Source: Candidatus Bathyarchaeota archaeon (lineage in GTDB: Archaea; Thermoproteota; Bathyarchaeia; Hecatellales; Hecatellaceae). From it: DNA of 64,000 nt. Under the pieces are notes generated by a model. That model had not been told where the DNA came from. It was given only the letters and a program-made list of their open reading frames with translations, and made no database searches. The translations under genes were made by a program, and so were the position numbers. Below are positions 29,978 through 61,854 of this stretch, piece after piece; the first letter of the stretch is position 1; each line of letters starts with the position of its first letter. The stretch is from assembly GCA_052246995.1 (NCBI GenBank), contig JBQPWD010000004.1, positions 1 to 64,000 on the forward strand, given 5' to 3'.

Positions 29978-31282
29978 TTACGTAACTTTTTCCCACTTTT
30001 CAATTCTCAAAACTTGCGAAAGTGTACTACCTACCCTAATTTCAGCTTTAATTCTCTGCTCTTTCTCAAGAACATCTTTAGCCCTGTTTGCGATTTCGAC
30101 GGCAATTTCTTTAGGCACAACAACTATACCCGTATCGTCAGCAATAATCCAATCTCCAGGCCTAACTTTAGCCCCTCCACAGTAAATTTCAACATTTATT
30201 TCTCCAAAACCTTTAGGATCTCCAGCTGTGGGGTTTACATATTTAGCAAATACTGGAAAGTTCATCTTTCTTATTTCGTCGACATCTCTAACAGCACCAT
30301 CAATAACAACACCATTCAATCCTTTAACCACACAACTTAAAGTTGCAAGCTCACCCCACACAGCCTTTTTGCTATCACACGCATCAATAACTAAAATGGA
30401 GCCGGGTTCAGCCACATCTATGGCTTCAACAGGTTTAGCCCAATCTCCAGGAGCTGTTTTAACTGTTACAGCTTTACCTACAGCTTTAACACCAGTAACT
30501 ATTGGGAAAATTCCAAACATCTCACCTTTTCTTTGCATAGCATCAGAAATGTTTGCTGAGGAGACCTCCATAAACACTTTTTGAATATCTTCCTCACCAT
30601 ACTTCTTGTAAAGTTTTGTTGGAATGGGCTTTCTTTGTCTTATAGACTCTTTGATTACTTTTGTAGCTTCTTCAGCATTTTCAGCCTTAATTATGGCTCC
30701 ACCAACAATAACTATGCTTGCTCCAGCTTCAACGGCTAAGGGTGCTGTTTCACTATTTATTCCCCCAGCTACAGCAACAGGAATGTTTACAGCATTAACA
30801 ACACCCCTAAGAACATCCAAGGGTTTAATACCTCTCATTTGTTGGTCTATACCAACGTGAACACAGATATAATCTACACCAATTTTTTCAAGCTCAACAG
30901 CTCTTTTAACGTGATTTTCAACGCCTAAAAGGTCAACCATTATTTTTGCACCATACCTCCGCCCTGCCTCAACAGCCTCCCTAATAGTACTATCATCCGA
31001 AACTCCAAGGATTATTACCACTTCAGCCCCAGCTTTAGCAGCGGTCTCAACTTCAACTGACCCTGTATCCACGGTTTTCATGTCAGCAAGGATGGTATAG
31101 CTTGGAAACCTTCTTTTTAACTCTCTAACAGCATCTAAGCCTTCACTCTTAATCAGTGGTGTTCCAGCCTCTAACCAATCTGCTCCTCCGCGGACAGCTT
31201 CTTCAGCAACTTTTAATGCCCTATGAAGGTCTGTAAAATCTAGCGCTACTTGAAGTTTAGTCTCCTTAAAAAGATTGGACAT
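29978..31282 (-). CDS. 3-hexulose-6-phosphate synthase fused to an RraA/HMG-aldolase-like domain
   Basis: N-terminal ~215 aa: LQVALD, EAGTPL, ADMKTVDTG, VHVGIDQQ, VAGGI. C-terminal: ISDAM, GKAVTV, AVWGEL, IDGAVRD..EI, V.PGD.I.AD..G.VV.P. Confidence 0.92.
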   Translation of the reverse strand: MSNLFKETKLQVALDFTDLHRALKVAEEAVRGGADWLEAGTPLIKSEGLDAVRELKRRFPSYTILADMKTVDTGSVEVETAAKAGAEVVIILGVSDDSTIREAVEAGRRYGAKIMVDLLGVENHVKRAVELEKIGVDYICVHVGIDQQMRGIKPLDVLRGVVNAVNIPVAVAGGINSETAPLAVEAGASIVIVGGAIIKAENAEEATKVIKESIRQRKPIPTKLYKKYGEEDIQKVFMEVSSANISDAMQRKGEMFGIFPIVTGVKAVGKAVTVKTAPGDWAKPVEAIDVAEPGSILVIDACDSKKAVWGELATLSCVVKGLNGVVIDGAVRDVDEIRKMNFPVFAKYVNPTAGDPKGFGEINVEIYCGGAKVRPGDWIIADDTGIVVVPKEIAVEIANRAKDVLEKEQRIKAEIRVGSTLSQVLRIEKWEKVT

Positions 31283-31291
31283 GGATATTTA

Positions 31292-32140
31292 CTAACCCCC
31301 CTTTATTATTTCAGATATTATCCTTTTTTCTAGAATTTCAGCTCTGGCTAGTACACCAGGTTTTAGAAGCCTCCTCTCAGCAAATACCTTTAACCTTTTA
31401 CACATAAAATCGACAATTTTGCATAAATTTTCACAATTGTTGTACGAGGCTACCATATTTTTAAGCTTAAGCTTGTTCTCAAACCTTAAATTTTCAGCAA
31501 TTTTAATCATATTTGGCAATGCTCTAACAACATTGTCAACTATCGTAACCGAAGCCCACAGTGCTGTTCTGGAAAACGGGTTTAAATCTATAGCTATAAC
31601 ATTTTTACCCATTTTTCGTAGACATTCTGTTCTATCACCATCCTCAATAGCTAGAAGAACGGTATCAGCTAAGAAGATACCCCTAGGAGAAACCTTACGT
31701 CTTAAGCTGGATAAACCAGGTATTTCTGATGATGCCTCATACCCGACACCAAAAATAGCCTCTAAACCTCTATCCTTTAAAAGTTTAGCTATTTTTGCCT
31801 CACGCGCTAAAGATCTATAAAAAAGGTTTACTTCAACCTTTGCATTAACACTCTTCGCAAGCCTAACGATCTCATCAACACATAAAGCCGCAGCATTACC
31901 GTTAACCGAGATAACAGGATATTTAGATAAAAGCATCATAGCTACAGCTACTTTTTCAGCTTCAAACGCAAATGGCAGGGTTTTTTCTCCAAGAATGTAG
32001 TCAAAGCATTCTCCTCTACCGTGAGCAATAAGTCCAGCTAACGCCACAAGACCCTTCTCAAATCCCTCTACAAGTTTTTCACGGATTCTTAAGGATTCAG
32101 CTCTTGGATGATTTTCAGGTATATGAAATTTATTGCTCAA
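31292..32140 (-). CDS. pps: 4-phosphopantoate--beta-alanine ligase (phosphopantothenate synthetase)
   Basis: HPRAESL..RE, IAHGRGE.FDY..GE, SVNGN, EVNLFYR, EDGDR, IDLNP.SRT. Confidence 0.95.
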   Translation of the reverse strand: MSNKFHIPENHPRAESLRIREKLVEGFEKGLVALAGLIAHGRGECFDYILGEKTLPFAFEAEKVAVAMMLLSKYPVISVNGNAAALCVDEIVRLAKSVNAKVEVNLFYRSLAREAKIAKLLKDRGLEAIFGVGYEASSEIPGLSSLRRKVSPRGIFLADTVLLAIEDGDRTECLRKMGKNVIAIDLNPFSRTALWASVTIVDNVVRALPNMIKIAENLRFENKLKLKNMVASYNNCENLCKIVDFMCKRLKVFAERRLLKPGVLARAEILEKRIISEIIKGG

Positions 32141-33041
32141 TTATCCTCGCCCCTATCAAATCAACATCTGAAGTGATAATTTCACCACCAACCTTTCTAA
32201 ACAAGTTAACATAGGGAAAAACATCCTCAAGTTTATCCTCCTTTATAAGTGTAAATAGTGCTTCACCAAACATGTTCATTGAAAATCTCTGTCCGTTATA
32301 CCTATCCAAAATATCTAGTACATTTCTTAGCCTTTGAGTGTAAATGTTAACTTCATCAGCAAACATTCTAGAAGCTTTTATGAAAGTTTCAACTGATGGT
32401 TTTGCTAGGAAATGTTTCAAAGCTTTTCTTCCAGCCAGATTTATTCTTAACCTAACTTCACGATTTTTCAAGAAGGTCTTTGTTGGTAAAGCTGAGAAAT
32501 ATAAAGAAACAACCTTAAAGCTTGACCAGTTAAACTTCCTTATGGAGCCTACCCCTGGAGCACCAGCTTTATCTCTAACCTCAAATCCGCCGAAAGTTTC
32601 ACCTATAACAGTCCCAAGACCAGTTTTACATTTGATTTCAGCTAAATGTGCAAGTTGTGCTGCTTCGACTTTAGATAATCCTAAATTTAACGCCTCATTT
32701 AAGGCTAGTGACAATCCTAGAACTCCGGCTCCGCTTGTACCGTAACCAGCTCCTACTGGTAGATCGGTTTTATGTATAACTTTAATGTTGTAAGGTTTTT
32801 CTACAAGTTTTGAAAGCTCATTTATCAGTGTTAGAGACACGTCAGCTTTGGTTGGAGAACTATTTATGCTTATGCTTACAATCCACCTATGACTTTTCTC
32901 CACCTCAACCTCGGTGTACACACCTTTGGTTAGCGAAAAACCTCCGCCAAGAGAACCTTTCCTTAGCAAATTTTTATATTTATCATTTATAATAAAAAAA
33001 CCTGTTATATGAGCTGGTGCGAAGGCTTTAACTTTTTTCAA
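32130..33041 (-). CDS. pok: Pantoate kinase (GHMP family)
   Basis: AF.PAHITGFF, GS.G.G, P.GAGYGTSG, AH.AE....TGLG.V, GAPG.G. Confidence 0.92.
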   Translation of the reverse strand: MKKVKAFAPAHITGFFIINDKYKNLLRKGSLGGGFSLTKGVYTEVEVEKSHRWIVSISINSSPTKADVSLTLINELSKLVEKPYNIKVIHKTDLPVGAGYGTSGAGVLGLSLALNEALNLGLSKVEAAQLAHLAEIKCKTGLGTVIGETFGGFEVRDKAGAPGVGSIRKFNWSSFKVVSLYFSALPTKTFLKNREVRLRINLAGRKALKHFLAKPSVETFIKASRMFADEVNIYTQRLRNVLDILDRYNGQRFSMNMFGEALFTLIKEDKLEDVFPYVNLFRKVGGEIITSDVDLIGARIIEQ

Positions 33042-33256
33042 CTTAATGAAAAGTTAGTTATTAATGTAAAACTTAAAGATATCCTACAAAACCTTTAAAG
33101 AACTTCATATTTTTTCCATCTATTTTTAACGCTAAACCAAATAAAACAAACATAATCGTAGAAGGTACTGCTTTAACTTTCTAAGCACAAATTTTATGTC
33201 CAAAAAACTGAAATATTAATAAATCACTTTTTAAAGGTAAGTTATCTCATAAAGTA

Positions 33257-34030
33257 ATGGCGAGGAATAAGGCGTTGAGCACGGTAGGTAAAGGAGACTT
33301 CATACTTATAGATTATGTTGCAAAGATAAAGGAGACAGATACAGTATTTGACACAAACATCAGCTCTATTGCAAAGGAGTTGAAAATTTTTAAGGAAGAC
33401 GGAATGTACGAACCTATGCTTGTGGTTGTGGGAGAGGGATGGGTTTTAAAGGGACTTGATGAAAAACTTGTTGGAATTAAGGTTGGAGAAAAAACGGTTA
33501 TTGAACTCCCACCTGAGAAAGCTTTTGGCCCAAGGGATTCAAACAAAATTAAACTTGTCCCTTTACGTAAATTTCAGCAGCAAAAAATAAACCCCTATCC
33601 CGGTATGGAGGTTGAAGTTGATGGTAAACTTGCTGTTGTTAGAAGTGTTGGTTCCGGGAGAGTTCAGGTTGATTTCAACCCTCCACTTGCGGGTAAAACT
33701 TTACTTTACGAGGTTGAAGTTAAGAAAGTCTTACAAACACCATTAGAAAAAGTTAAGGCTTTGATTCGTCGCAGAATACCAAAAATAGACCCTGAAAAGT
33801 TTAATGTTAAATTTTTAGAAAAAAATGTAACAATAGAAATGCCTGAAGAAGCTTTAAACATTGATAGGCTTCAGCTTGCGAAAAGAGGTTTGGCTTTTGA
33901 CGTTCAAAAATTTTTTCCTGATGTTGAAGTTGTAACGTTTGTTGACAACTATGTAAGAAAAAGGAGAAATAGTGTGGAAGGGAAACCTAAAGAGGAAGAA
34001 TCAAAACTTGAACAAAAACTTGACCATTAA
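33257..34030 (+). CDS. Long-type FKBP peptidyl-prolyl isomerase (SlyD-like)
   Basis: GDFI.IDY, FDT, VVG.G....GLDE, PPEKAFG.RD, VDFN.PLAGK.L. Confidence 0.92.
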   Translation: MARNKALSTVGKGDFILIDYVAKIKETDTVFDTNISSIAKELKIFKEDGMYEPMLVVVGEGWVLKGLDEKLVGIKVGEKTVIELPPEKAFGPRDSNKIKLVPLRKFQQQKINPYPGMEVEVDGKLAVVRSVGSGRVQVDFNPPLAGKTLLYEVEVKKVLQTPLEKVKALIRRRIPKIDPEKFNVKFLEKNVTIEMPEEALNIDRLQLAKRGLAFDVQKFFPDVEVVTFVDNYVRKRRNSVEGKPKEEESKLEQKLDH

Positions 34031-34472
34031 CAGGACATTTAACAGTTCCGTAAATCTTAATAACCTTGCATTTTAACCCAGCTTGCAGTACTTGAGGGAC
34101 ACAATCGTTAAACATTTCACACTGAATATTACTACACTTCTGAGGACTAAACTCTATGATAGCACCCTCAATTGCAAATTTTTGCTTAATATTTACTTTT
34201 AAGCTTGCAGATTCAACTTCAACAAGACAAACCTCCCCACCAGAAAGTTTACACTCAAAAATTCTGTCTCTTACATCAACAACAGTATAACATTTCCCAG
34301 GTTGAAGATTATGACAAACTTTTAAAAGTGAACAATTTAAACATTCCACAGCCAAACCTTGATAGATAAAGGTGTACCCTTTTTTAGCCTTACCGACGCT
34401 GATAAGCGTTAAATTTCTTCTAACTTTACTGGTAGCCATATAGGTTCTTTGGAAACATTTATTAACTAACAA
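33987..34472 (-). CDS. UPF0179 family Cys-rich protein
   Basis: TLI....AKKG..FIY.G...EC..C....VC.NL..G..Y.V..VR. Confidence 0.8.
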   Translation of the reverse strand: MLVNKCFQRTYMATSKVRRNLTLISVGKAKKGYTFIYQGLAVECLNCSLLKVCHNLQPGKCYTVVDVRDRIFECKLSGGEVCLVEVESASLKVNIKQKFAIEGAIIEFSPQKCSNIQCEMFNDCVPQVLQAGLKCKVIKIYGTVKCPVNGQVFVQVLILPL

Positions 34473-34550
34473 GGTTATTTCTAAACTAGCTAATATGCCT
34501 TAAGCTTTTCACCTTTTACCAGTTAGAAACAATTTTAATGGGGTAAGTTC

Positions 34551-35201
34551 ATGCTCGGTAATAAACATCCATACCATTCACAGCTAGAAAACTTAAAACT
34601 TAAAGGAACAACAACAGTAGGAGTTATATGTGAAGACGGTGTTGTGTTAGCTACCGATACAAGGGTTACAATGGGGTATTTTATAGCTCACAAACATGGA
34701 AAAAAGGTTTACAAGATTGATGACCATTTAGCAATGACTATTGCGGGAGTTGTTGCTGATGCACAAAATGTTGTTGATGTTTTAAAGGCTAATGTAAGGG
34801 TGTTTAAGCTTACAAATGGTAGACCGATAACAGTAAATGCTGCTGCAAGACTTGCAGCGAACATACTCTTTCGTAGCAGATACTTTCCATTAGTGCTTCA
34901 AGCAATTATTGCTGGAGTTGATGATGATGGACCGCACATATTTTCACTAGATCCCTTGGGAAGTTTGACGGAGGAGAAAAAGTTTTTTGCTACAGGCTCA
35001 GGCTCACCTATTGCCTTAGGAATACTTGAAGATGGCTATAGAGATGGGTTAACTATTAAGGATGCTATACCTCTAGTTGTTAGAGCTATTAAATCAGCCA
35101 TGAAAAGAGATGCTGCAAGCGGGGATAGTTTTGATGTTTCGGTGGTAACTAAAGATGGTTATATGGAATTAAGTGAAGAGGAAAAGCAAAAGTATGGTTA
35201 A
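34551..35201 (+). CDS. psmB: Proteasome subunit beta
   Basis: Propeptide then KG|TTTVG, GSGS, RDAASGD. Confidence 0.97.
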   Translation: MLGNKHPYHSQLENLKLKGTTTVGVICEDGVVLATDTRVTMGYFIAHKHGKKVYKIDDHLAMTIAGVVADAQNVVDVLKANVRVFKLTNGRPITVNAAARLAANILFRSRYFPLVLQAIIAGVDDDGPHIFSLDPLGSLTEEKKFFATGSGSPIALGILEDGYRDGLTIKDAIPLVVRAIKSAMKRDAASGDSFDVSVVTKDGYMELSEEEKQKYG

Positions 35202-35305
35202 GTCTATTAATTCAATTCCCTTTACTTACCAGGTTTCCGCCAATTTAAGATTTAACATGTAATAAAAAGCAACTACAACGGTTAGTATTGAGGGATTTTT
35301 AAGAG

Positions 35306-37237
35306 ATGAAAAGAGAAACTGTAGATTCGTCAAGAAAAAGTATAAAAAGTATAATTGATGTTGTACTTCAGTATATTCCAAAAGAAGCTGAAGTTTCACG
35401 AATAGAGTTTGAAGGACCAAGACTTGCAATATACACAAAGAAGCCTGAAATTCTACTTGAACAAAGCTATATAATAACAGACCTTGTAAACAAGATAAGA
35501 AAGAGAGTTATCTTACGTTGCGATCCGTCCATAAGGATGAATGAAGAAGAAGCTAAGAAAGCTATAGAAAAGATTGTAAGCCCTGAGGCTGAAATAACTC
35601 AAATGTTTTTTGACCCGGTAGTTGGCGAAGTTATCATTGAGGCTAGAAAACCTGGACTTGTAATATCCAAAAATGGTTTAACTTTCCAAGAGATTATTAA
35701 AACAACTAAATGGCGACCACGTGTTTTAAGAACTCCGCCAATATCATCCAAAATTATTGCTCATGTGAGATACTACCTTTATAATGAAGCTGAAGAGAGA
35801 AAGAAAATACTTCATGACGTTGGTGAAAGAATTTTTAGACAACCATTGCATAAAGGTAAGGAGCTACTCATTACACCCCTAGGAGGTTTTCAACAGGTTG
35901 GCAGGTCAGCAATGCTCATAAGAACTAGGGAAAGTATGGTTCTTGTTGATTGTGGAATTAACCCAGCATCCACAAACCCTGAGGAAGCTTACCCTAGACT
36001 TGATGTTGAAGAGTTTGATGTAGAAGCTCTTGATGCTGTCGTTATTTCACATGCACATCTAGACCATTGTGGATTACTTCCAATATTATTCAAGTACGGA
36101 TACGATGGTCCTATCTACTGTTCTGAGCCAACTTTACATCTCATGATTTTGCTTCAACTAGATTACTTAGATGTTCTAAAAAGAGAAGGTAAAACATTAC
36201 CTTATGACCAGAAAGATGTGCGGGAGGTTGTAACTCATACTATTCCTGTTAGTTTTGGTGTGGTTACAGACATATCCCCAGATATAAGGTTAACCTTACA
36301 CAACTCAGGACATATTTTAGGTTCATCCGTTGTACATTTACATATAGGTGATGGACTCCATAACATAGTTTATACTGGAGATTTTAAATTCATGAAAACC
36401 ATGCTTCTTGAAGCGTCATCAACAACTTTTCCAAGAGTTGAAACATTAATAATGGAGAGCACATACGGTGGGTCTGAAGATATTATGCCTCCGAGGTTTG
36501 AAGTTGAGCAGAGATTTGCAACCATAGTAAACCAAACAATAAACAATAACGGAAAAGTTTTAATACCAGTTTTAGCTGTTGGAAGAGCTCAGGAGATAAT
36601 GGTTGTCATTAACGAGTATATGGAGCGGGGGATAATCTCCCAAGTTCCGGTTTTTATTGATGGAATGATAAATGAAGTCACAGCAATCCATACAGCCTTT
36701 CCAGAGCATCTTTCAAAAGAGCTGCAAAATAAAATACTGCATGAAGATGTAAATCCATTCCAATCTGAACAGTTTTTTATAATTAAGCACGCAAGTGGAA
36801 GAGAAGAAGTTTTTAGCGAAAAATCATGTATAATCCTTGCAACATCAGGCATGCTTGAAGGTGGTCCTGCTCTTGAATACTTTATGGAGCTTGCCCCTGA
36901 TGAAAAAAACACTATAATGTTTGTGTCCTATCAAATTGAAGGAACTCTTGGAAGGCGTATATTAAACGGTCTTAGAGAAGTCTCGATGGTAGATTCTGAA
37001 GGTAAAATTAGAGTTGTAAAGGTTAAAGCTCGAGTTGAATCTGTTGAAGGTTTTTCAGGACATAGTGACAGAAACCAGCTTTTAAATTATGTTAAAAGGA
37101 TAACTCCTAAACCTCAAAGGGTTATCATCTGCCATGGTGAAAAATCAAAAAGTTTAAGTCTTTCGTTGGCAATTGAAAAAACATTTAAGATTAAGTGTAG
37201 TGTTCCACCAATACTTGAAACAACAAGAGTTTACTAG
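35306..37237 (+). CDS. fttA: aCPSF1 / FttA beta-CASP ribonuclease (KH + MBL + beta-CASP)
   Basis: IEFEGP, KPGLVI, LGGF.QVGRS, SHAHLDH, GHILGS, FSGHSD; canonical psmB-aCPSF1 linkage. Confidence 0.96.
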   Translation: MKRETVDSSRKSIKSIIDVVLQYIPKEAEVSRIEFEGPRLAIYTKKPEILLEQSYIITDLVNKIRKRVILRCDPSIRMNEEEAKKAIEKIVSPEAEITQMFFDPVVGEVIIEARKPGLVISKNGLTFQEIIKTTKWRPRVLRTPPISSKIIAHVRYYLYNEAEERKKILHDVGERIFRQPLHKGKELLITPLGGFQQVGRSAMLIRTRESMVLVDCGINPASTNPEEAYPRLDVEEFDVEALDAVVISHAHLDHCGLLPILFKYGYDGPIYCSEPTLHLMILLQLDYLDVLKREGKTLPYDQKDVREVVTHTIPVSFGVVTDISPDIRLTLHNSGHILGSSVVHLHIGDGLHNIVYTGDFKFMKTMLLEASSTTFPRVETLIMESTYGGSEDIMPPRFEVEQRFATIVNQTINNNGKVLIPVLAVGRAQEIMVVINEYMERGIISQVPVFIDGMINEVTAIHTAFPEHLSKELQNKILHEDVNPFQSEQFFIIKHASGREEVFSEKSCIILATSGMLEGGPALEYFMELAPDEKNTIMFVSYQIEGTLGRRILNGLREVSMVDSEGKIRVVKVKARVESVEGFSGHSDRNQLLNYVKRITPKPQRVIICHGEKSKSLSLSLAIEKTFKIKCSVPPILETTRVY

Positions 37238-37240
37238 CTT

Positions 37241-37540: not shown

Positions 37541-37746
37541 TTTTGTTCACTTCTACCTGATAGTTGTTTTTACTGATTTGATACCTTAGTTCATTATTAA
37601 GGTTGAAACTTAAAAAGATTTTTTTCGGTAAACTGCACCTACTTCGCAAGTCCTGGATTATGCTTTACGCTAGAGTAATATACAAGAAGACATTAAAAAT
37701 GATGTTTACCTATAAAAACGTTTAACTTGACTTGTAAACCTTACAT

Positions 37747-38253: not shown

Positions 38254-38363
38254 CTCGTTTACAATATATTATTCATTGACTTTAAAACATTTAGTTTAAA
38301 CTTTAAAGCGATATTTTTAAATTATAGCTGTTTCTCTCTTCTAACAAGAGAAGAAAATTTGGG

Positions 38364-40933: not shown

Positions 40934-42586
40934 ATGTCTAGAAATATTTATGAAAGAAAACCATGGCTGAAGAACTACAACTCCTTTGTTCCAGAAACTC
41001 TTGAATATCCTAATGTTCCCATATCCTACCTCGTTAAATCTTCTGTTAAGGATTTTCCTGAAAAACCTGCACTATATTATGGGAATAGAAAAGTAACCTA
41101 TAGAGAGTTTGGCGATTATATTGCAAGATTTGCCGCAGCCCTTGATGAAATGGGCGTTAAGAAGGGGGACAGGATTGGCATCCTATGTTTAAATACACCT
41201 CAATATCTCATAACATTCTATGGAGCTCTGGAAATTGGAGCTGTACCAACAGGTGTTAATCCGCTTCTTACACCAAGAGAACTAGAGTATATACTGGTTG
41301 ATGCGGATATCGAAACACTAGTTACGTTAGACCTTTTCCTACCTCGTGTTCAAGAGGTAAAAGAAAAAACTAGTCTTAAACATGTCATAGTTACTAGGCT
41401 TAATGATTTTCCGGGGGATGAATCTTTACCGGAGCCTCAAAAGATAATAGGTACAATATCATTTTTAGACTTACTTAAACATGATTCAAATCCTCCTCAA
41501 GCTAAAATAGATCCAAAAAATGATTTAGCGATTCTTCAATATACTGCCGGAACGACAGGCTTACCTAAAGGGGTAATGTTAACTCATGCAAATATCGTTG
41601 CAAACATAACTCAAATCTTAGCATGGTTAGAGTTTAAGAAGGGAGAGGAAATAGTTTGTTCATCGTTTCCATTCTTTCACCTAGCTGGTTTGGCTTTTAA
41701 CATGGTTGCTGTGGCTGCAACAGCAGCACAAGTACTTATAACTAATCCAAGAGATATTGAAACAACGTTTGACCTCATAGACAAGCATCATCCATCAATT
41801 TTATGTAATGTTCCAACAATCTACATTATGCTTTTAAGACATCCAAGATTCAATAGTTCAGCTATAGGGAAGGTAAGAATGTTTGTGAGTGGAGCAGCTC
41901 CACTTCCCACAGAAATCTTAAGGGAGTACCAGCAAAAGACTAATGGCGTAATGATTGAAGTTTGGGGAATGACCGAAGCTAGCCCAGTGCTTACAGCAAA
42001 CCCTGTTAAGGGACATAAAAAAGCTGGTTCGGTAGGGATACCTCTTCCAGATACTATGGTTAAAGTTGTAGACATGGAAACCGGGGTTAAAGAACTTCCG
42101 ATAGGTGAACAAGGTGAGCTTATAGCACAAGGTCCACAAGTTTTCTATAAAGGCTACTGGAAAAAGCCTAAGGAAACAGCAGAAGCATTAAAGAATGGAT
42201 GGTACTACACTGGAGACGTAGGCTACATGGATGAAGATGGCTACTTCTACATTGTAGATAGAAAAAAGGATATAATCAATGTTTCAGGTTATAAGGTTGC
42301 CTCAAGAGAAGTAGACGACATACTACTCCAGCATCCAGCAGTTAGCATGGCGGCAACTATAGGTATTCCAGACCCTGAACGGCCAGGAAGCGAGGTCGTA
42401 AAAACTTATATTGTGCTAAAAGAGGGATATAAACCGAGCCCTGAACTAGCTGAGGAAATTAAACAATGGTTAAGAAAACTTCTAGCACCTTACAAAATCC
42501 CAAAAATTATTGAATTTAGGAGGGAGTTGCCGCTTAGCGCTACAGGAAAAATTCTTAAGAGGGAATTAAAGAAAGAAACGGTATGA
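40934..42586 (+). CDS. Long-chain fatty-acid--CoA ligase (AMP-forming)
   Basis: QYTAGTTGLPKG, WGMTEASP, TGD.G.MDEDG...IVDRKKD, GKILKR. Confidence 0.92.
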   Translation: MSRNIYERKPWLKNYNSFVPETLEYPNVPISYLVKSSVKDFPEKPALYYGNRKVTYREFGDYIARFAAALDEMGVKKGDRIGILCLNTPQYLITFYGALEIGAVPTGVNPLLTPRELEYILVDADIETLVTLDLFLPRVQEVKEKTSLKHVIVTRLNDFPGDESLPEPQKIIGTISFLDLLKHDSNPPQAKIDPKNDLAILQYTAGTTGLPKGVMLTHANIVANITQILAWLEFKKGEEIVCSSFPFFHLAGLAFNMVAVAATAAQVLITNPRDIETTFDLIDKHHPSILCNVPTIYIMLLRHPRFNSSAIGKVRMFVSGAAPLPTEILREYQQKTNGVMIEVWGMTEASPVLTANPVKGHKKAGSVGIPLPDTMVKVVDMETGVKELPIGEQGELIAQGPQVFYKGYWKKPKETAEALKNGWYYTGDVGYMDEDGYFYIVDRKKDIINVSGYKVASREVDDILLQHPAVSMAATIGIPDPERPGSEVVKTYIVLKEGYKPSPELAEEIKQWLRKLLAPYKIPKIIEFRRELPLSATGKILKRELKKETV

Positions 42587-44241: not shown

Positions 44242-45702
44242 GTGTTAAGTTTGGTTTTAAAAACTTCCCAAGAATATGTTGAAAGTTTAAGAAGACTTAA
44301 ATTGAACGTTTACATGTTTGGTGAGAAAATCATAAATTTTGTTGAACATCCAATAATTAAGCCTTCAATAAATTCTGTGGCTAAAACCTACGAGGTTGCA
44401 GAGAAACCAGAATATGCCTCTATAGCAACAGCGAATTCGCATCTTACAGGTGAAAAAATTAACAGGTTTACACATATCCACCAAAATGTTGAAGATTTGA
44501 TTAAGAAACTTAGATTGCTTAGAGTTTTAGGTCAACTAACAGGTACGTGTTTTCAAAGATGTCCAGGTTGGGATGCTATCAACGCCTTATACAGCGTAAC
44601 CTATGAGATAGATAAAAAACATGGAACAAGATACCATGAAAACCTTAAAGAATATGTTAAATATCTTCAACAGGAAGACCTTGCTGCTTGTGCAGCCATG
44701 ACAGATCCTAAGGGAGATAGAAGTCTTAGACCCTCAACTTTACCGGATAAAGACCTATACCTACATGTTGTGGAAGAACTAAAAGATGGTGTTGTTGTTA
44801 GGGGTGCTAAAGCGCACCAAACTGGTGCACTTAATTCTCACGAAAAAATTGTTATGCCAACTTTAGCTATGAATAATGATGAAAAAGCCTACGCTATATC
44901 CTTTGCAATTCCAAGCGATGCTGATGGGATAATCTACATCTATGGTAGGCAATCATGTGACCTTAGAAAAATGGAGAAAAATGCGGAAATAGACCTTGGG
45001 AATGCTAGTTTTGGAGGCCAAGAAGCGCTAATAGTATTTAATGACGTTTTCATTCCTAGGGAAAGAATCTTCATGTTTGGAGAAAACGAGTTTAGTAGGA
45101 GTCTGGTTGAGAGGTTTGCAGGTTTTCACAGACATAGTTATGGTGGATGTAAGGTTGGATGTGGAGATGTTCTTATAGGTGCAACAGCTCTTATAGCTGA
45201 ATATAACGGTATTGCTGATGCAAGTCATGTAAGAGATAAAATTGCTGAAATGATTCATTTAAATGAAACATTATGGGCTTGTGGCTTAGCAGCCTCAGTT
45301 GAAGGTAAAAAAACTGATTCAGGAGCATACCTAATAGATTTAATGCTTGCAAACGTTTGTAAGCTAAACGTTACAAGAAATCCCTACGAAATAGCTAGAT
45401 TAGCTCAAGACATTGCGGGAGGTTTAATGGTAACTTTACCGTCAGAAAAAGATTTTAAACATCCAGAAATCGGGAAATACTTGAATAAATACTTTAAAGG
45501 TAAGATAGACATTCCAACGGAACACAGAACAAGAATTCTAAGATTAATAGAAAACATGACCCTAGGTTTTGGTGCAGTAGGTTATCTGGTTGAATCTTTA
45601 CATGGTGCAGGCTCACCCCAAACACAAAAAGTGATGATTAGAAGACTTACAGATTTAGAGTATAAGAAAAAAATTGCAAAAGAGATAGCTGGAATTAGGT
45701 AA
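44242..45702 (+). CDS. abfD: 4-hydroxybutyryl-CoA dehydratase / vinylacetyl-CoA isomerase family
   Basis: TGTCFQRC (Fe-S Cys pair), MTDPKGDRS, GAKAHQTG, HRHSYGGC (His/Cys ligands), ES.HGAGSP. Confidence 0.9.
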   Translation: MLSLVLKTSQEYVESLRRLKLNVYMFGEKIINFVEHPIIKPSINSVAKTYEVAEKPEYASIATANSHLTGEKINRFTHIHQNVEDLIKKLRLLRVLGQLTGTCFQRCPGWDAINALYSVTYEIDKKHGTRYHENLKEYVKYLQQEDLAACAAMTDPKGDRSLRPSTLPDKDLYLHVVEELKDGVVVRGAKAHQTGALNSHEKIVMPTLAMNNDEKAYAISFAIPSDADGIIYIYGRQSCDLRKMEKNAEIDLGNASFGGQEALIVFNDVFIPRERIFMFGENEFSRSLVERFAGFHRHSYGGCKVGCGDVLIGATALIAEYNGIADASHVRDKIAEMIHLNETLWACGLAASVEGKKTDSGAYLIDLMLANVCKLNVTRNPYEIARLAQDIAGGLMVTLPSEKDFKHPEIGKYLNKYFKGKIDIPTEHRTRILRLIENMTLGFGAVGYLVESLHGAGSPQTQKVMIRRLTDLEYKKKIAKEIAGIR

Positions 45703-53785: not shown

Positions 53786-53825
53786 AGCTTTAACCTTCTT
53801 AAGGTGTAGTTTTACGGAGTCACAC

Positions 53826-54608: not shown

Positions 54609-54864
54609 ATTTAAGCTGAAGGTTTAGCTTATATTCTTGGATTTATTTAGAGTTGTTTTTGTTTGTTAAACTAATTATAAATTATGCTTTCAGTTTCTCT
54701 TTTACCTACCATTTTAACGTTTAAAACTTTTTACTAATTAAGGAAGCTAAAGATTCCTATTTTAAAAATCTTCATGCCCTTGAAAGCCATGTTTTCAGCT
54801 TCTCATAACAACGGAGAAGTTATGTATTTATTAGTAAAAAGCAAATATTATTGAGGATGGTAAA

Positions 54865-55290
54865 TTGGAGAAGGTTACAAGAATTAGTATAACCATACCT
54901 AAGGAGCTTCTTAAAGAATTCGATGAAACAAGCCGAACGGTCGGGTACAGGAAACGCTCAAGAGCTGTAAGTGAGGCTATTAGAAAATTTATAGCTGAGC
55001 ATAAACTTTTAGAGAAAATAAAATTGGGCGATTGCGCCGGAACTATCACATACACCTACAATCACGAAGTTAGAGGTTTACCGGATAGAATAACAGAAAT
55101 TCAACATAGATACTCGGACATCATTAGCTCAACTTTACATATACATTTAGACGAGAAAAATTGCCTTGAAAATCTTATGGTGAGGGGTAGTGTAGACAAG
55201 GTTAAAAAACTGGTTAAAAGACTAAAATCATCAAGGATAGAAAATTTACAATACATACTTCTACCATTATCCTCAAAAAAGCTAAGTTAA
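54865..55290 (+). CDS. nikR: Nickel-responsive regulator NikR
   Basis: RISITIP..LL.EFD ribbon-helix-helix, RS.A...AIR, Y.H, QH, H.H....CLE metal site. Confidence 0.92.
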   Translation: MEKVTRISITIPKELLKEFDETSRTVGYRKRSRAVSEAIRKFIAEHKLLEKIKLGDCAGTITYTYNHEVRGLPDRITEIQHRYSDIISSTLHIHLDEKNCLENLMVRGSVDKVKKLVKRLKSSRIENLQYILLPLSSKKLS

Positions 55291-55301
55291 AACTGTCTAC
55301 A

Positions 55302-56369: not shown

Positions 56370-56375
56370 AAATGC

Positions 56376-57377
56376 TTAATCTTTTGGGTAAAAAAGGTCA
56401 CCACTTTCCCCAATAATAACTCTAAAGTACTCACCTTTAACGGATAAAACCTTTTCAAGTTTGCCTTTAACATAAACCCTCTCAAATTTTTTAGCTTGTT
56501 CACAAAACCTTCCTCTAAAAGATACCACCTCTTTTACCATACCAGGGTCTTTAAGGGTTCTGTTAATCACCGAAACATTTCCTAACTTATATTTTGATGG
56601 TGTAAATATAGCTTCGCTGTCATCAACAACATCAGCTTCAAGCTCAATAGACCCCACATACCTGTAGTATTTTTCACCATATCTTTCATCCCCCTCCCAG
56701 ATGTTTTTAATAAACCTAATAAAGTACTCTCTTTGGTTAAAAAATCCTTGAAAAAGTTTTCTTGATTCAACTTTAACAAATTTCTCAAAAGGTAGAGGGG
56801 AATCCTTAACCCTAAACGTATAAAGCTTCTTAAGCTGGTCTTCTTCATATGGTTTTATTAAACCCTCACTTAAAAGCTTTCTAAGAGCGCTATGCACAGC
56901 TTTACATTCTTCTGTACCATAAACAACTAAATCTATATCTGAATCCTCTTTATGTAAACTAACCATAACCGAGCCTGAAACACCTAAACTCGACGGGGAG
57001 ATAGAAGCAAATTTACAAATAAGTTTTACAAACTTAACAGAATCTTCTTCAAGCTTATCAAGATTAATTTTGGTTAAAAGTAGTTGTAGAAATTTTTGTG
57101 GGTGGTAAAATCTTTTAATTCTGGTTCTTGGCACCTCAGCCAAAATGCTATTAAAAACAGGATCAAACCTTAAATATTCAGGAAATTTTTCTTTTAAAAA
57201 AAGGAGAGAATCGGTTAAAGACAAAAATTTTTTGTAACCTTTTCTTTCACCATTTGGAATGTACTTGGGATAAGCTATAACGTAAGTTGGTGGATGAATG
57301 TTTCCTTTTACAGCAAAAATAATACCTTCTAAACTTTCAAGATAATCACCTTCCATTGGAAGGTGTTCTAAATCCAA
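56376..57377 (-). CDS. Predicted nucleotidyltransferase, tandem paralog of 55302-56369
   Basis: F.VKG..HPP..VIAYPKY.P, GVSGS.......SDIDLVVYG, RGRFCEQA. Confidence 0.75.
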   Translation of the reverse strand: MDLEHLPMEGDYLESLEGIIFAVKGNIHPPTYVIAYPKYIPNGERKGYKKFLSLTDSLLFLKEKFPEYLRFDPVFNSILAEVPRTRIKRFYHPQKFLQLLLTKINLDKLEEDSVKFVKLICKFASISPSSLGVSGSVMVSLHKEDSDIDLVVYGTEECKAVHSALRKLLSEGLIKPYEEDQLKKLYTFRVKDSPLPFEKFVKVESRKLFQGFFNQREYFIRFIKNIWEGDERYGEKYYRYVGSIELEADVVDDSEAIFTPSKYKLGNVSVINRTLKDPGMVKEVVSFRGRFCEQAKKFERVYVKGKLEKVLSVKGEYFRVIIGESGDLFYPKD

Positions 57378-57566
57378 TTTTCCACTCCTTATTCTGTTTT
57401 CACGTTTTTAAACCTACTATCTATTAATTTACTGGAAAATTAAGCATTACGGAAAAAACTTAATTAAAGAAGAGCCACTTTAGCTGCGCTATACCTAGTT
57501 AACTCACAATTTAGGCTTGATAACTAACAAATATTTCCACCGTGCATAGTTAATTTTTGAGGCCTA

Positions 57567-58214
57567 TTGAGTAAAAAAGGAATCGTCGTACTGGCAGGTG
57601 GTAGAGGAGTTAGACTTAAAAGAAAACTTCCAAAGCCGCTTATAAAACTTCATGGAAAAACTCTTATTGAGCATGTTTTAGAAAAAGTTCAAAAAGTTTC
57701 AAAAAACGTAGTTATTGTTATTAGTAAGGAGGAGGATGAAAAAGCTTTTAGAGACATTGTTTCAGACCGTATACCAATACTTGTTGACGTGGTTAAGAAT
57801 GTTGGGCCTCTATCTGGAATGTTAACAGGTATGCAGAAAATTGAGGCAAATTACGTGTTAACTGTTCCATCAGACACTCCATTTATTAACCCTGAAATCT
57901 TAAAATACCTTTTTAAGAAAGCCAAGAGCCCGGTAGACGCTGTTGTCCCAATTTGGCCTAACAATTTTAAGGAGCCTCTTCAAGCGGTATACAAAAGGAA
58001 TTCAACAGTCAAGGTGTTAGAGGAAAATATTAAAGATGGAGAATTCTCAGTTTTAAGCTTAACGAGAAAATTAAAGAATGTCTTATACATTTCCGTCGAG
58101 GAACTTAAGGTTTTTGATCCTAAATTAATCACGTTTTTTAACATAAACACAGATAGAGACTTACTGCTGGCTAGAAAACTCGTTAGACTATACTCATCTA
58201 GGGTGGAAAAATAG
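57567..58214 (+). CDS. mobA: Molybdenum cofactor guanylyltransferase
   Basis: LAGGRG.R, K.L, GPL.G, D.PF, EPL.A.Y, FFNINT..DL. Confidence 0.88.
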   Translation: MSKKGIVVLAGGRGVRLKRKLPKPLIKLHGKTLIEHVLEKVQKVSKNVVIVISKEEDEKAFRDIVSDRIPILVDVVKNVGPLSGMLTGMQKIEANYVLTVPSDTPFINPEILKYLFKKAKSPVDAVVPIWPNNFKEPLQAVYKRNSTVKVLEENIKDGEFSVLSLTRKLKNVLYISVEELKVFDPKLITFFNINTDRDLLLARKLVRLYSSRVEK

Positions 58215-58254
58215 ATAAAACTTTGATAATAAGAAGATAACTGTGGTGGTTTAA

Positions 58255-59103
58255 ATGGGTAAACCATCTAAGCTTTTATACATTAAAGAAAAGCACATAG
58301 TAACTATAATAATTAACAGACCTGAAGTTTTAAACTGTATTGACCCTGAAACAGATGCTCTTCTAGCTGACGCTTGGATTAAATTTAGAGAGGATGAAAA
58401 TGCTTATGTAGCAATAATAACTGGAGCTGGAGAAAAATCGTTTTGTACAGGAGCAGACTTAAAAAGCTGGCCTGAATATCTAAAAAGCCGTAATGTGAAT
58501 TTTTTAAGAAAACGGGCATACTATGGTCCTGGTTTTGGAGGCATAACTAGGGGTATTGAAGTTTTTAAACCTATAATTGCAGCTATTAATGGCATGTGCT
58601 ACGCTGGAGGCTTGGAAATTGCTCTTGCAACAGATATAAGATTGGCTGCAGAACATGCAAAATTTGGTGTTTTAAACAGAAGATGGAATGTGGGGTTAGG
58701 GGATGGTGGAACACAAAGACTTCCAAGAGTTATTGGGTTAGGTAGAGCTCTAGAACTCATTCTTACTGGAAAAGAGATTGACGCTTATGAGGCTTATAGG
58801 ATAGGTCTAGTAAACGAGGTTGTACCCAAGGATAAACTTATGAGTAGAGCTAAAGAAATTGCAAAAACTATATGTAAATATCCTCAAGGCTCTATAAGAA
58901 CAGATAAAGAGGCAGTAATTAGAGGAGTGGGTAAAGATTTAGAAGAAGGTTTGAGAATAGAAAACATGCTTTTCAACACACTACTTTTAACTCACGACTT
59001 TTATGAAGGCCCAAAAGCGTTTGCAGAAAAACGTAAACCAAAGTACACAAATGAGAAAGAAAAAATAGGAGGGTTAATTTCACACCATCTTCATGAAAGA
59101 TGA
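58255..59103 (+). CDS. Enoyl-CoA hydratase/isomerase family protein
   Basis: NRPEVLN, FCTGADL, KPIIAAING...AGG.E.AL..D.R, GGTQRLPR.IG. Confidence 0.92.
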   Translation: MGKPSKLLYIKEKHIVTIIINRPEVLNCIDPETDALLADAWIKFREDENAYVAIITGAGEKSFCTGADLKSWPEYLKSRNVNFLRKRAYYGPGFGGITRGIEVFKPIIAAINGMCYAGGLEIALATDIRLAAEHAKFGVLNRRWNVGLGDGGTQRLPRVIGLGRALELILTGKEIDAYEAYRIGLVNEVVPKDKLMSRAKEIAKTICKYPQGSIRTDKEAVIRGVGKDLEEGLRIENMLFNTLLLTHDFYEGPKAFAEKRKPKYTNEKEKIGGLISHHLHER

Positions 59104-59382
59104 GGTTTAGAAAAACAACACAAAAACTTAACATTACACACAGTTTTCCATACAGGGGACATTCTACAAAGCCCTTTTCTTGTATAGTTGTTGTCGCATT
59201 TTTTTAAAAAGAAAAAAAGTTTTGATAGATTCGCTAGACACATAGCATGTTAACTATTGATCAAACTACTAAAATATGAAAAAAGTTGTCTTCCAATTTT
59301 TAATCTTAGGGTATTGCGGATAATTTGTCTACTTAAGAGTTGGGAAGTATAATATACAAGTTTTTAGCTTTTTAGGTTTATA

Positions 59383-61854
59383 GTGAGGTTAAGGAAGGTT
59401 AAGATGGAGTTTTACGGTTACATCGGAAAGATTGCAAGAATAAACCTTACAACAGGAAGTATTAAAGCTGAAACGTTAAACCCCAAAATAGCTTACAATT
59501 TCCTTGGTGGAAGGGGTTACGCGGCAAAGATTCTTTATGATGAGCTTAAACCGAACATTCCTCCACTAAGTGAGGAAAACAAGCTAATCTTCATGACTGG
59601 TCCACTAACAGGAACAGACTTTCCAGGGTCAGGTAGAATTTCCATAAGCACAAAGTCCCCTTTAACAGGGACAATTTTTGACTCTTCCATGGGAGGGTCT
59701 TTTGGAACATATCTTAAAAGGTCAGGATATGACGGAATCATTCTTGAGGGTGCAGCTAAAAACCCTACATACATTCTCGTTGACAACGAAAAAGTGTTTA
59801 TAGAAGATGCATCTAGCTTACAAGGTGCATCCACCTTCACCACCGAAGAAAAGTTAAGAAGCCAGCATGGAGTTTGCGGAGTTGCTTGTATTGGTCCTGC
59901 TGGTGAAAACCTTGTTTACCTTGCAAATATAATGTCTGAGGGACGTACAGCTGGTAGGGGTGGTTTAGGTGCTGTTATGGGTTCTAAAAACCTTAAAGCT
60001 ATAGTTGTTAAGGGTGAGAAAAAAGTAAAAATTTTTGATGAAAAAGCATACCGTGTTCTTTTAAAAAAGATTAGGTTCATAATCGAGAATGATCCATTCA
60101 CAGGTTTTGATGGAACTCTTTCAAAGTTTGGTACAGCAGGAATTGTTCATAGGATTAGAAGTGCAGGAATTCTGCCTGTGGAAGATTTTTCAGGTAAAAT
60201 GCTAAGCTTTGAGGAGGCTGACAAGTTTTCCGGTGAAAGTATTAGAGAGAAGTTTTATTTTGGTAGAAAGGGATGTTACTTATGTCCCACTGCCTGTGGA
60301 AGAAGAGTTAAAGTTGAGAATATCATCGTTAAAGGTCCAGAGTATGAATCAATAGTTATGCTTGGACCAAACTCTGGGTTTTATGATTATGAAGAAATAA
60401 CTAAGCTTGCTTTAGAGTGTGATAAGCTTGGTTTGGATACTATTTCTACTGGAAATATTCTGGGTTATGCCAGACAGATTGGCATTATTTCAACATTTAA
60501 AGATGCGTTAAAGTTAATTGAGGAGATAGCCTATCATAGGTCGGTATTCGCTAAAGGTTTAAAAAATGCGGCAAAAATTTTCGGTAGAGATGCTGCTGAG
60601 GTTAAAGGGCTAGAAATTCCAGCATACGATCCTAGAGGAGCTTTAGGTATAGCTTTAGCTTATGCAACATCAAACAGAGGAGGATGTCATCTTAGGGCGT
60701 ACACCATTGCACCTGAAATTTTAAGCAATCCTGTTTACGTTGACCCAGCCACCGAGGTAGGTAAAGCGGAAATTGTGAAGAGAATGCAAGATGTTTTTGC
60801 TGTTTATGATAGTAGCATTATATGTAAGTACCATGGCTTATCCTTGTTTACTAGCCTAAAGTTTGAAGTTGAAGATTTGGCAAGAATTTTAACAAGCTTG
60901 ACAGGATTTAGATTTACAAATAACATTCTCCATGAGATTGGAGGAAGAATTTACAATGTAGAGAGACTTTTTAACTCTAGAGAAGGGTTTACTGTTGAGG
61001 ATGATAAACTACCTAGAAGGTTTAACTTAGACCTAAGCAAACTTTTAGTAGAATATTATAATGTAAGAGGATGGATTGAAGGTAAGCCTCAGCTTCCACC
61101 AAGCTTGCGTGAGGTTGAATATTCCGGAAGAGGAGAGTTAGCAATTACTTCTCTTATGAAACTTAAACCTCCACAGATTCAAGTTGCATTAGACATGGAT
61201 GCCGAGTTGGATACCATCGTAAAAGTTGCACAACAATCCTATATTGGTGGTGCAAGAATAATCGAGGCTGGAACGCCTGCAATTAAAAGACATGGAGTTG
61301 AAAAACTTATACCTGCCTTAAGAGAGGTGGCACCTGAAGCTTTAATAGTTGCTGACATGAAGATAGCTGATGCAGGTAAACTAGAGGCTAGAATAGCTTT
61401 AAGGGCAGGAGCAGATATTGTTGCCGTTTTAGGGATTGGTGGAGTTGAGAAGATTAAAGAAGCTTTAGGAGAAGCTATTAGGAATGATTGTGCAATTTTG
61501 ATAGACTTAATAGACTGTGAAGACCCTATTAAAAGGGCTGAAGAGCTTATTAAAGTTTTAAAAGGAAAAGAGGATTGGGTTATCTTCTGTCTTCATCGAG
61601 GAATAAGTGAACAAATGAGAAGTAGAGGAATTTACGATCAGAAAAGCTTAATCTCAGAGTTTAGAAAGAAGATCAATGGTTTTACAATGGCTATAGCCGG
61701 AGGTATAAGGGAGGGGACAGCTGGGGAGATAGCCTCCTGTGGTGTTGAAATTATAATTGTTGGAAGTGCAATTTATAACTCGGTAAATCCTGTAGAAACA
61801 ACAAAACGTTTCCTAGATGAAGTTAGAAAGATGTATAAAAAAGTCAGCTCCTGA
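59383..61854 (+). CDS. Aldehyde:ferredoxin oxidoreductase (W/Mo-pterin AOR family) fused to a C-terminal 3-hexulose-6-phosphate synthase domain
   Basis: Likely start ATG 59404. AOR motifs: GGRG, KSPLTG, GRGGLGAVMGSKNLKA, CYLCPTAC, EYE, D.LGLDTIS, RGGCHL. From ~61165 HPS motifs: QVALD, IEAGTP, VADMKIADAG, H.G, IAGGI, IVGSAI. One uninterrupted frame. Confidence 0.9.
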   Translation: MRLRKVKMEFYGYIGKIARINLTTGSIKAETLNPKIAYNFLGGRGYAAKILYDELKPNIPPLSEENKLIFMTGPLTGTDFPGSGRISISTKSPLTGTIFDSSMGGSFGTYLKRSGYDGIILEGAAKNPTYILVDNEKVFIEDASSLQGASTFTTEEKLRSQHGVCGVACIGPAGENLVYLANIMSEGRTAGRGGLGAVMGSKNLKAIVVKGEKKVKIFDEKAYRVLLKKIRFIIENDPFTGFDGTLSKFGTAGIVHRIRSAGILPVEDFSGKMLSFEEADKFSGESIREKFYFGRKGCYLCPTACGRRVKVENIIVKGPEYESIVMLGPNSGFYDYEEITKLALECDKLGLDTISTGNILGYARQIGIISTFKDALKLIEEIAYHRSVFAKGLKNAAKIFGRDAAEVKGLEIPAYDPRGALGIALAYATSNRGGCHLRAYTIAPEILSNPVYVDPATEVGKAEIVKRMQDVFAVYDSSIICKYHGLSLFTSLKFEVEDLARILTSLTGFRFTNNILHEIGGRIYNVERLFNSREGFTVEDDKLPRRFNLDLSKLLVEYYNVRGWIEGKPQLPPSLREVEYSGRGELAITSLMKLKPPQIQVALDMDAELDTIVKVAQQSYIGGARIIEAGTPAIKRHGVEKLIPALREVAPEALIVADMKIADAGKLEARIALRAGADIVAVLGIGGVEKIKEALGEAIRNDCAILIDLIDCEDPIKRAEELIKVLKGKEDWVIFCLHRGISEQMRSRGIYDQKSLISEFRKKINGFTMAIAGGIREGTAGEIASCGVEIIIVGSAIYNSVNPVETTKRFLDEVRKMYKKVSS

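Follow-up and report, generated by a model that had tools for sequence, protein, structure and literature searches.

The stretch of DNA analyzed here, referred to as the window, comprises 64,000 nucleotides (positions 1 to 64,000 of the forward strand of contig JBQPWD010000004.1, assembly GCA_052246995.1) of a Candidatus Bathyarchaeota archaeon and encodes two proteins in which a hexulose-6-phosphate synthase (HPS) domain is fused to a putative formaldehyde-consuming domain. The window represents contig C4 of a 17-contig, 1.53-Mb Bathyarchaeia genome (completeness 100%, contamination 0.54%), and the nearest loci were found in metagenome-assembled genomes (MAGs) of Bathyarchaeia/Hecatellales, at no more than 90% identity. 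In one protein, P0001, HPS is N-terminal to an aldolase-like domain of the RraA family (HPS-RraA), and in the other, P0002, it is C-terminal to an aldehyde ferredoxin oxidoreductase (AOR; AOR-HPS). These architectures, which a preliminary description of the window had reported, are borne out by the open reading frames and their Pfam domains, and the two HPS motifs quoted there, VHVGIDQQ and LHRGISEQ, are both present. The features discussed are as follows.

27757..29022, minus strand: CoaBC (PPCS/PPCDC), with DFP and Flavoprotein domains; last gene of the coenzyme A (CoA) operon
28989..29951, minus strand: ketopantoate (2-dehydropantoate) reductase PanE, with ApbA and ApbA_C domains; TIGR00745, 267 bits, cut-off 141
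29978..31282, minus strand: HPS-RraA-like aldolase fusion P0001, 434 aa; NF005442; candidate ketopantoate-forming enzyme
30119..30556, minus strand: RraA-like class II aldolase domain of P0001, residues 243-388; PF03737, 162.5 bits, over the cut-off
30641..31261, minus strand: HPS domain of P0001, residues 8-214; TIGR03128 HxlA; catalytic residues kept
31292..32140, minus strand: phosphopantothenate synthetase (PPS); PF02006 PPS_PS, 226.2 bits
32130..33041, minus strand: pantoate kinase-like (PoK-like) GHMP kinase; GHMP_kinases_N; first gene of the CoA operon
59383..61854, plus strand: AOR-HPS fusion P0002, 823 aa; AFOR_N, AFOR_C and OMPdecase in a single frame
59425..61092, plus strand: AOR part of P0002 (AFOR_N and AFOR_C); tungsten-type AOR
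61171..61812, plus strand: HPS domain of P0002, divergent type 1; PF00215, 86.6 bits

Domain composition of the two fusions

The CoA operon is tightly packed on the minus strand in the order PoK-like kinase, PPS, HPS-RraA, PanE and CoaBC. The PoK-like kinase and PPS genes overlap by 11 nt, P0001 starts 9 nt beyond the end of PPS, PanE starts 26 nt beyond the end of P0001, and the PanE and CoaBC genes overlap by 34 nt. The top NCBIfam match of the kinase is pantoate kinase (NF041122), at 167.7 bits and under the cut-off of 500. P0001 itself contains an OMPdecase/HUMPS domain (residues 8-208, E 2.1e-36) and an RraA-like domain (residues 243-388, E 1.1e-47), and over positions 3-429 of 430 it exceeds the cut-off of the NF005442 / PRK07028 model, "bifunctional HPS/ribonuclease regulator" (659.6 bits, cut-off 593). 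The HPS part also exceeds that of TIGR03128 HxlA (225.4 bits, cut-off 200). For the RraA-like domain, the nearest solved structure is the HMG/CHA aldolase 3noj (95.7 bits), and RraA 3c8o scores 65 bits. The domain retains the Arg-Asp pair aligned to 3noj chain positions 123-124, which we take to be catalytic in RraA-like class II aldolases, and carries Glu where 3noj has the Asp of G-D-L.

P0002 comprises AFOR_N (residues 15-211), AFOR_C (227-570) and OMPdecase/HUMPS (597-810, E 1.4e-23). Its true start is likely the ATG at 59404, since in the frame started at GTG the first residue to align with Pyrococcus furiosus AOR is residue 11. The protein passes both AOR-family profiles (PF02730, 270.8 bits; PF01314, 302.1 bits). 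In the alignment to 1aor, three Cys in C-x2-C-x3-C and a fourth Cys are kept, as are Glu, His and the residues of the pterin motif; C298, C301, C305, C481, E320/E322, H436 and G350/D352 are moreover invariant among full-length fusions of the two types distinguished below (67/67 type 1, 11/11 type 2). By analogy with P. furiosus AOR, the four Cys presumably serve as 4Fe-4S ligands, with Glu and His near the metal and D-x-x-G-L-D binding the pterin. The nearest structures to the HPS part are the HPS entries 9lj9 and 3ajx, and HxlA-type models match it best (UlaD models, 52.8 and 65.1 bits). NF009833, the Fae-HPS model, is matched through the HPS part alone, and a Fae domain is absent from P0002.

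The junction between the AOR and HPS parts is covered by a 10,465-base contig (59971-62500) of run X1, a run that bears a metatranscriptomic label, probably consists of DNA according to its flag, and may derive from the source sample itself. In the only true RNA run (X8), a 210-base near-identical contig at 60547-60756 and short AOR motifs from other organisms were found, by which transcription is not shown. A methylpurine-DNA glycosylase gene (61817-62449), with no obvious functional link, overlaps the end of the AOR-HPS gene by 38 nt and also follows AOR-HPS in the same-genus relative G001.

Identity and phylogeny of the HPS domains

Active-site residues of the HPS domains were assigned by E. 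coli UlaD numbering. D11, E33, D62, K64, D67 and H136, which we take to be the metal-binding and catalytic residues of the HPS/KGPDC active site in the OMPDC suprafamily, are present in both window domains as well as in 68/68 type-1 AOR-HPS and 28/28 HPS-RraA sequences. At UlaD positions E112, R139 and T169, both window domains carry D, I and A, in agreement with the HPS-type residues D, I/V and A. In trees built from 117 rows (quick) and 63 rows (careful), both domains were placed among the HPS sequences, to the exclusion of UlaD (supports of 88 SH-aLRT and 98/89). The preliminary description had asked whether one of the two might cluster with KGPDC/UlaD or be inactive; both group with HPS, no catalytic residue appears to be lost in either, and both are probably real HPS rather than KGPDC-type domains.

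The HPS domains of AOR-HPS proteins fell into two clades, type 1, which includes the window protein (100/99), and type 2 (95/95). Type 1 was sister to the HPS domain of Fae-HPS (98/92) on a long stem branch of 1.2-1.4 changes per column, and type 2 grouped weakly with HPS-RraA (81/33). This topology suggests two independent AOR-HPS fusion events, while a single AOR-HPS clade, a group named after the first tree was seen, was not rejected by the AU test (lnL difference 8.13, p 0.178).

Gene content of the genome

Three OMPdecase-family genes are present in the genome, namely a PyrF-like gene and the two fusions; therefore, both HPS copies are fused and the genome has no free HPS. The HPS-fused RraA-like domain is the only one encoded, and there are five AOR genes. 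Phosphohexuloisomerase (PHI), on which the proposal in the preliminary description depends, is encoded as a free protein (194.5 bits, cut-off 160). Transketolase, transaldolase and 6-phosphogluconate dehydrogenase (6PGD) were not found in the genome, and Fae had no match there. PHI and HPS therefore constitute the sole recognizable pentose-phosphate route. A class V FBPase is also encoded.

For PanB (ketopantoate hydroxymethyltransferase, KPHMT; EC 2.1.2.11), the PF02548 profile gave no match in this 100% complete genome, nor was any other gene seen that might serve the ketopantoate step. IlvD is encoded, and 2-oxoisovalerate should therefore be available. What is new here is the presence of both fusions in one complete genome that lacks free HPS, Fae, PanB, transketolase and transaldolase. 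Full-text searches of the literature outside subscription journals turned up no description of an AOR-HPS fusion or of the function of HPS-RraA.

Genomic context and co-occurrence of HPS-RraA

Neighborhoods of HPS-RraA were surveyed in 80 related loci. PoK, PPS and PanE flank the fusion in seven of these (L003-L009), every one from Bathyarchaeia, and CoaBC is also there in six of the seven. In G014, which belongs to another family, HPS-RraA comes immediately after CoaBC, and in G069 HPS-RraA, PanE and a PHI-like gene stand back to back with PoK-PPS-CoaBC. This PHI-like SIS gene (L113:5724-6308), located downstream of HPS-RraA and PanE, reached 154.4 bits with TIGR03127, just below the cut-off of 160; its presence within the CoA cluster agrees with hexulose phosphate as one-carbon (C1) source. 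The operon of a further relative, G020, reads PoK-PPS-PanE-PanB-decarboxylase-CoaBC-PPAT. As this genome carries a true PanB in its CoA operon and has no HPS-RraA, PanB and HPS-RraA share an operon position.

Among 41 Bathyarchaeia genomes, full HPS-RraA was found in 12 (and, as two contig-split halves, in G007), PanB in five and both in none. PPS occurs in 15 of the 41, comprising 13 with HPS-RraA (the split G007 included), G020 with PanB and G038 with neither. In G038, PoK-PPS is directly followed by a gene (L099:6992-7603) for a 203-aa protein without a Pfam or NCBIfam match. A set of 161 Bathyarchaeia genomes, each at least 85% complete, included 11 with full HPS-RraA, 59 with PanB and one, G069, with both. 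As an independent lineage, 121 genomes were sampled from the class of the DHVE2-group genome G045 (Thermoplasmatota), including the unpublished G255. HPS-RraA was found in 99 and PPS in 102 of these, and PanB in none of the 121; the fusion and PPS were both present in 97 genomes and both missing in 17, leaving seven discordant genomes (two with only the fusion, five with only PPS). Methanosarcina acetivorans, used as a control, has PPS and HPS-RraA and no PanB.

A 471-aa protein encoded on a single 1.8-kb contig, P0088, combines PPS_PS (PF02006) with an HPS domain (residues 257-466) that was placed within the HPS-RraA clade. It may be another case in which HPS and CoA synthesis are physically joined, or it may be a gene-calling artefact. 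In addition, genes of the UPF0047/YjbQ family adjoin HPS-RraA in five bacterial loci (L030:4332-4754; L032:6570-6992; L042:6546-6992; L043:4073-4495; L047:5868-6290) and Fae-HPS in the Bathyarchaeia relative G002 (L097:6771-7199); a homologue is encoded elsewhere in the window's genome (C1:21626-22036).

Distribution of AOR-HPS and Fae

A search with the HPS part of AOR-HPS among proteins of 452-1441 aa yielded 102 matches, of which 79 were AOR+HPS, 19 HPS-RraA, three SIS+GPI+HPS and one PPS+HPS. Source labels of AOR-HPS proteins include Bathyarchaeia, Hadarchaeota, Hodarchaeota, Thorarchaeota, Promethearchaeota and "Thaumarchaeota". Two of them (P0071 and P0072) are 991-aa forms with about 170 additional residues between or before the domains. 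The SIS+GPI+HPS proteins (P0102-P0104, 675-678 aa) join HPS to a SIS domain and a cupin-type glucose-6-phosphate isomerase (PF06560), which would place three consecutive steps from glucose 6-phosphate to ribulose 5-phosphate (Ru5P) on one chain.

AOR-HPS-sized frames were found in 13 of the 161 Bathyarchaeia genomes, across five families. Seven of the 13 were confirmed by Pfam (G000, G005, G008, G021, G026, G027 and G035) and the rest were assigned by frame length; G074 was Pfam-confirmed as well, for a total of eight. Co-occurrence with Fae, proposed in the preliminary description as a check, separated AOR-HPS from Fae-HPS: none of the 13 AOR-HPS genomes has Fae-HPS, and Fae, found in 103 of the 161 genomes, was present in only one of the 13 (G026), where its copies are divergent and do not adjoin any HPS. 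In the family to which the window's genome belongs, genera differ in the fusion partner of the second HPS, which is either AOR or Fae. Many Bathyarchaeia encode, in addition, a second Fae-like protein of greater divergence (about 125-215 bits; frames of about 495-550 aa), whose gene does not adjoin HPS. The idea that AOR replaces Fae because tetrahydromethanopterin (H4MPT) is absent was rejected, as the window's genome and 35 of 41 relatives encode Mch, a marker of the H4MPT pathway.

Discussion

Taken together, the evidence from sequence comparison tips, if only slightly, towards a reading in which pentoses are made by a reverse ribulose-monophosphate (RuMP) pathway and the formaldehyde released has two fates, oxidation by the AOR joined to HPS or condensation with 2-oxoisovalerate, which gives ketopantoate. 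In this pathway, free PHI would convert fructose 6-phosphate to hexulose 6-phosphate, which HPS would cleave to Ru5P and formaldehyde. Synthesis by PHI and HPS yields one formaldehyde per pentose, and the cleavage by HPS is thermodynamically unfavorable unless formaldehyde is removed. With each of the two HPS copies joined to a consumer, formaldehyde would never be set free. The bulk of the flux would pass through AOR-HPS, in which the HPS domain would split hexulose 6-phosphate and the tungstopterin AOR domain would oxidize the formaldehyde to formate, passing two electrons to ferredoxin and drawing the cleavage forward, as Fae may do in Fae-HPS. HPS-RraA would serve the far smaller demand for CoA, with cleavage of hexulose 6-phosphate as C1 donor. 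Its metal-dependent RraA-like domain could join the nascent formaldehyde to the enolate of 2-oxoisovalerate, and PanE, PoK, PPS and CoaBC of the operon could take the resulting ketopantoate on towards CoA, so that the fusion would replace the absent PanB. From what was observed, namely the domain architectures, the conservation of catalytic residues, the gene inventories, the places of the genes in operons and their phyletic distribution, we infer the direction of both reactions, the 2-oxo-acid substrate and any channelling between domains.

Both fusions have counterparts among known systems. Fae-HPS of methanogens and other archaea (NF009833; EC 4.2.1.147 according to a passage of PMC6946796) combines an N-terminal formaldehyde consumer with a C-terminal HPS in the same order as AOR-HPS. 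The two belong to sister HPS lineages with mutually exclusive distribution; however, AOR-HPS has no Fae domain, and its tungstopterin and iron-sulfur AOR would oxidize formaldehyde with ferredoxin instead of condensing it with H4MPT. The Thermococcales HPS-PHI fusion (NF041755) functions in a reverse RuMP pathway that, as in the window's genome, stands in place of the pentose phosphate pathway, whereas here PHI is a separate gene and HPS is joined to downstream formaldehyde consumers. Fae-HPS, HPS-PHI and the substitution of RuMP for the pentose phosphate pathway are mentioned in PMC6946796, PMC11291895 and PMC7143981, the last of which states that RuMP takes the place of an absent pentose phosphate pathway. 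Sections of PMC8065059 and PMC11291895 consider AOR together with a separate HPS as possible formaldehyde oxidation in Brockarchaeota and Asgard archaea. P. furiosus AOR (1aor) and formaldehyde oxidoreductase (FOR; 1b25) share AFOR_N and AFOR_C, the four cluster Cys and the pterin-motif residues with P0002, which differs by its extra C-terminal HPS domain.

With PanB (PF02548), HPS-RraA shares the proposed product, ketopantoate, and the operon position. As the two have no sequence relationship, the comparison is a claim of similar function and not of family membership. The proposed C1 donors also differ, being hexulose 6-phosphate through bound formaldehyde for HPS-RraA and methylene-tetrahydrofolate for PanB. 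In archaeal CoA literature, passages of PMC6650551 and PMC7883664 equate KPHMT with PanB. Of the solved structures, that of HMG/CHA aldolase (3noj), a class II pyruvate aldolase of the RraA-like kind, matches the C-terminal domain of P0001 best, and the two have the Arg-Asp pair in common; unlike this aldolase, P0001 is fused to HPS, carries Glu for the aligned Asp of G-D-L, and is proposed to use another donor and acceptor.

A number of points weigh against the proposed roles or restrict them. The reading comes from comparative genomics, and the phyletic counts were taken from related, hence not independent, genomes. In the remaining 73 HPS-RraA loci, all from outside Bathyarchaeia, the window's CoA proteins had no tblastn match beside the fusion, the exception being PPS 4 kb off in L072. 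G038 has PoK-PPS yet neither PanB nor the fusion, and G069, a genome of 88% completeness and 8% contamination, carries PanB in addition to HPS-RraA. Full PanB was found together with the fusion in three of four bacterial genomes tested (G041, G043 and G044; the MAGs behind L030, L042 and L047), and the Elusimicrobia genome with HPS-RraA (L034) gave just 30-bit PanB-like matches. These gene inventories speak against HPS-RraA as a universal replacement for PanB. No CoA genes are located near the RraA-like genes that stand alone in G039 and G035. The use of a branched 2-oxo acid by the RraA-like domain as donor is putative, and the RraA part of P0001 fails both HMG/CHA aldolase equivalogs (NF006731, 129.8 bits, cut-off 179; TIGR02798, 116.8 bits, cut-off 304.5). 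Mch and an SHMT-like gene are kept in the window's genome; C1 carriers are therefore available to the cell, and the "carrier-free C1 routing" of the preliminary description was overstated. Its picture of HPS as a modular dispenser is supported in part: the CoA-precursor arm draws comparative support from the operon slot, the co-occurrence with PPS and the PHI-like gene in a CoA cluster and is weakened by the coexistence of PanB in bacteria.

Some of the same observations would suit a different role, in which the RraA-like domain is a general acceptor or releaser of formaldehyde rather than a ketopantoate synthase, forming 4-hydroxy-2-oxobutanoate from formaldehyde and pyruvate or feeding or draining the folate/H4MPT C1 pool, and in which the place of the fusion in the CoA operon is specific to Bathyarchaeia. 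The co-residence of PanB in bacteria and in G069 would fit such a role, as would the substrate of the nearest characterized relatives (3noj), which is pyruvate. Among 21 non-Bathyarchaeia loci examined, FolD was found near HPS-RraA in six and FTCD_C in one, and the fusion directly follows a UPF0047/YjbQ gene in five; no pantothenate genes were found near the FolD- and UPF0047-linked loci. That UPF0047 adjoins both HPS-RraA and a Fae-HPS points to a shared role related to HPS and not specific to CoA. We nevertheless regard a general acceptor as unlikely, given that the fusion stands between PPS and PanE in seven Bathyarchaeia loci, next to CoaBC in G014 and in the CoA cluster of G069, that it is present or absent together with PPS in nearly all genomes sampled from a Thermoplasmatota class, none of which yielded PanB (97 both and 17 neither, n=121), and that a 100% complete genome showed no other candidate for the ketopantoate step. 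Far less probable still is a role of the RraA-like domain in regulation or protein binding, as in E. coli RraA, or in oxaloacetate decarboxylation without any relation to formaldehyde, with the fusion merely providing co-regulation. The family name, the NCBIfam label "ribonuclease regulator" and the match to the RraA structure 3c8o would agree with this; however, the aldolase relative 3noj scores higher, the domain retains the Arg-Asp pair, the fusion is preserved in archaea and bacteria alike, and the operon and phyletic ties to CoA synthesis would be left unexplained.

For AOR-HPS, the points against a role in formaldehyde oxidation lie in the divergence of its domains and in its surroundings. 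The HPS part scores below the TIGR03128 HxlA cut-off (134.4 versus 200 bits), and the Asp of H-x-G-x-D-x-Q, kept in 13/13 type-2, 28/28 HPS-RraA and 2/2 Fae-HPS sequences, is Ser or Thr in 68/68 type-1 sequences (Ser in P0002). By score, the AOR part appears nearer the broad-range AOR than FOR and outside the FOR subfamily (402.5 bits to 1aor versus 283.1 to 1b25). Among the neighbors of AOR-HPS in nine relatives, no partner is conserved beyond the genus. These features, together with the long type-1 stem branch, could indicate that the type-1 domain has moved off formaldehyde, cleaving or forming another keto-sugar phosphate while the AOR oxidizes another aldehyde. There is little probability in this, as the metal-binding, catalytic and three HPS-type residues are all kept, the type-1 domain is the sole candidate for bulk pentose synthesis in the genome, the less divergent type-2 HPS is likewise fused to AOR, and AOR-HPS alternates with Fae-HPS. 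The last of these, a distribution complementary to Fae-HPS, also lends support to the AOR arm as a putative formaldehyde sink, as the preliminary description had it.

AOR-HPS might instead operate in reverse, with reduced ferredoxin driving the reduction of formate to formaldehyde and the fused HPS fixing the latter onto Ru5P, thus providing an entry of formate into sugar phosphates. AOR-family enzymes are able to reduce acids, and a fusion would hold a scarce and toxic intermediate local. A conversion of formate to formaldehyde and on into RuMP, without a fusion, was hypothesized for a crenarchaeon in part of PMC7143981. A net assimilatory direction is argued against by the failure to find transketolase, transaldolase and 6PGD, without which Ru5P cannot be regenerated and the cycle cannot close; moreover, the cell has no other HPS for pentose synthesis, the alternation with Fae-HPS reads as that of a formaldehyde sink, and ferredoxin-driven acid reduction is strongly uphill. 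We therefore hold the formate-reducing direction to be quite improbable.

Elsewhere in the window are genes for an AMP-binding acyl-CoA synthetase (40934-42586), a protein with HpaB_N and HpaB domains of the 4-hydroxyphenylacetate-hydroxylase/4-hydroxybutyryl-CoA-dehydratase family (44242-45702) and an enoyl-CoA hydratase (58255-59103), which hint at a hydroxybutyrate-type or fatty-acid pathway.

If pentose synthesis by reverse RuMP is indeed coupled to the two formaldehyde consumers proposed above, this would explain how pentoses and CoA are made in a cell without the usual enzymes. It would also close two long-standing gaps, namely the pantoate supply for CoA in archaea without PanB, such as M. 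acetivorans, and the fate of the stoichiometric formaldehyde of reverse RuMP pentose synthesis in archaea without Fae. A clade within the tungsten AOR family, which is poorly understood, would gain a physiological substrate, and synthetic C1 metabolism would gain compact, cofactor-free parts. In its broadest form, which we put forward tentatively and at somewhat less than even chances, the proposal is that hexulose 6-phosphate is a cofactor-free C1 donor in many archaea and some bacteria, with HPS modules attached to AOR, Fae, an RraA-like aldolase and possibly PPS, and with formaldehyde occurring only enzyme-bound. One such module would replace the folate-dependent PanB in vitamin B5 synthesis, and another would regain two low-potential electrons, as reduced ferredoxin, for every pentose made.

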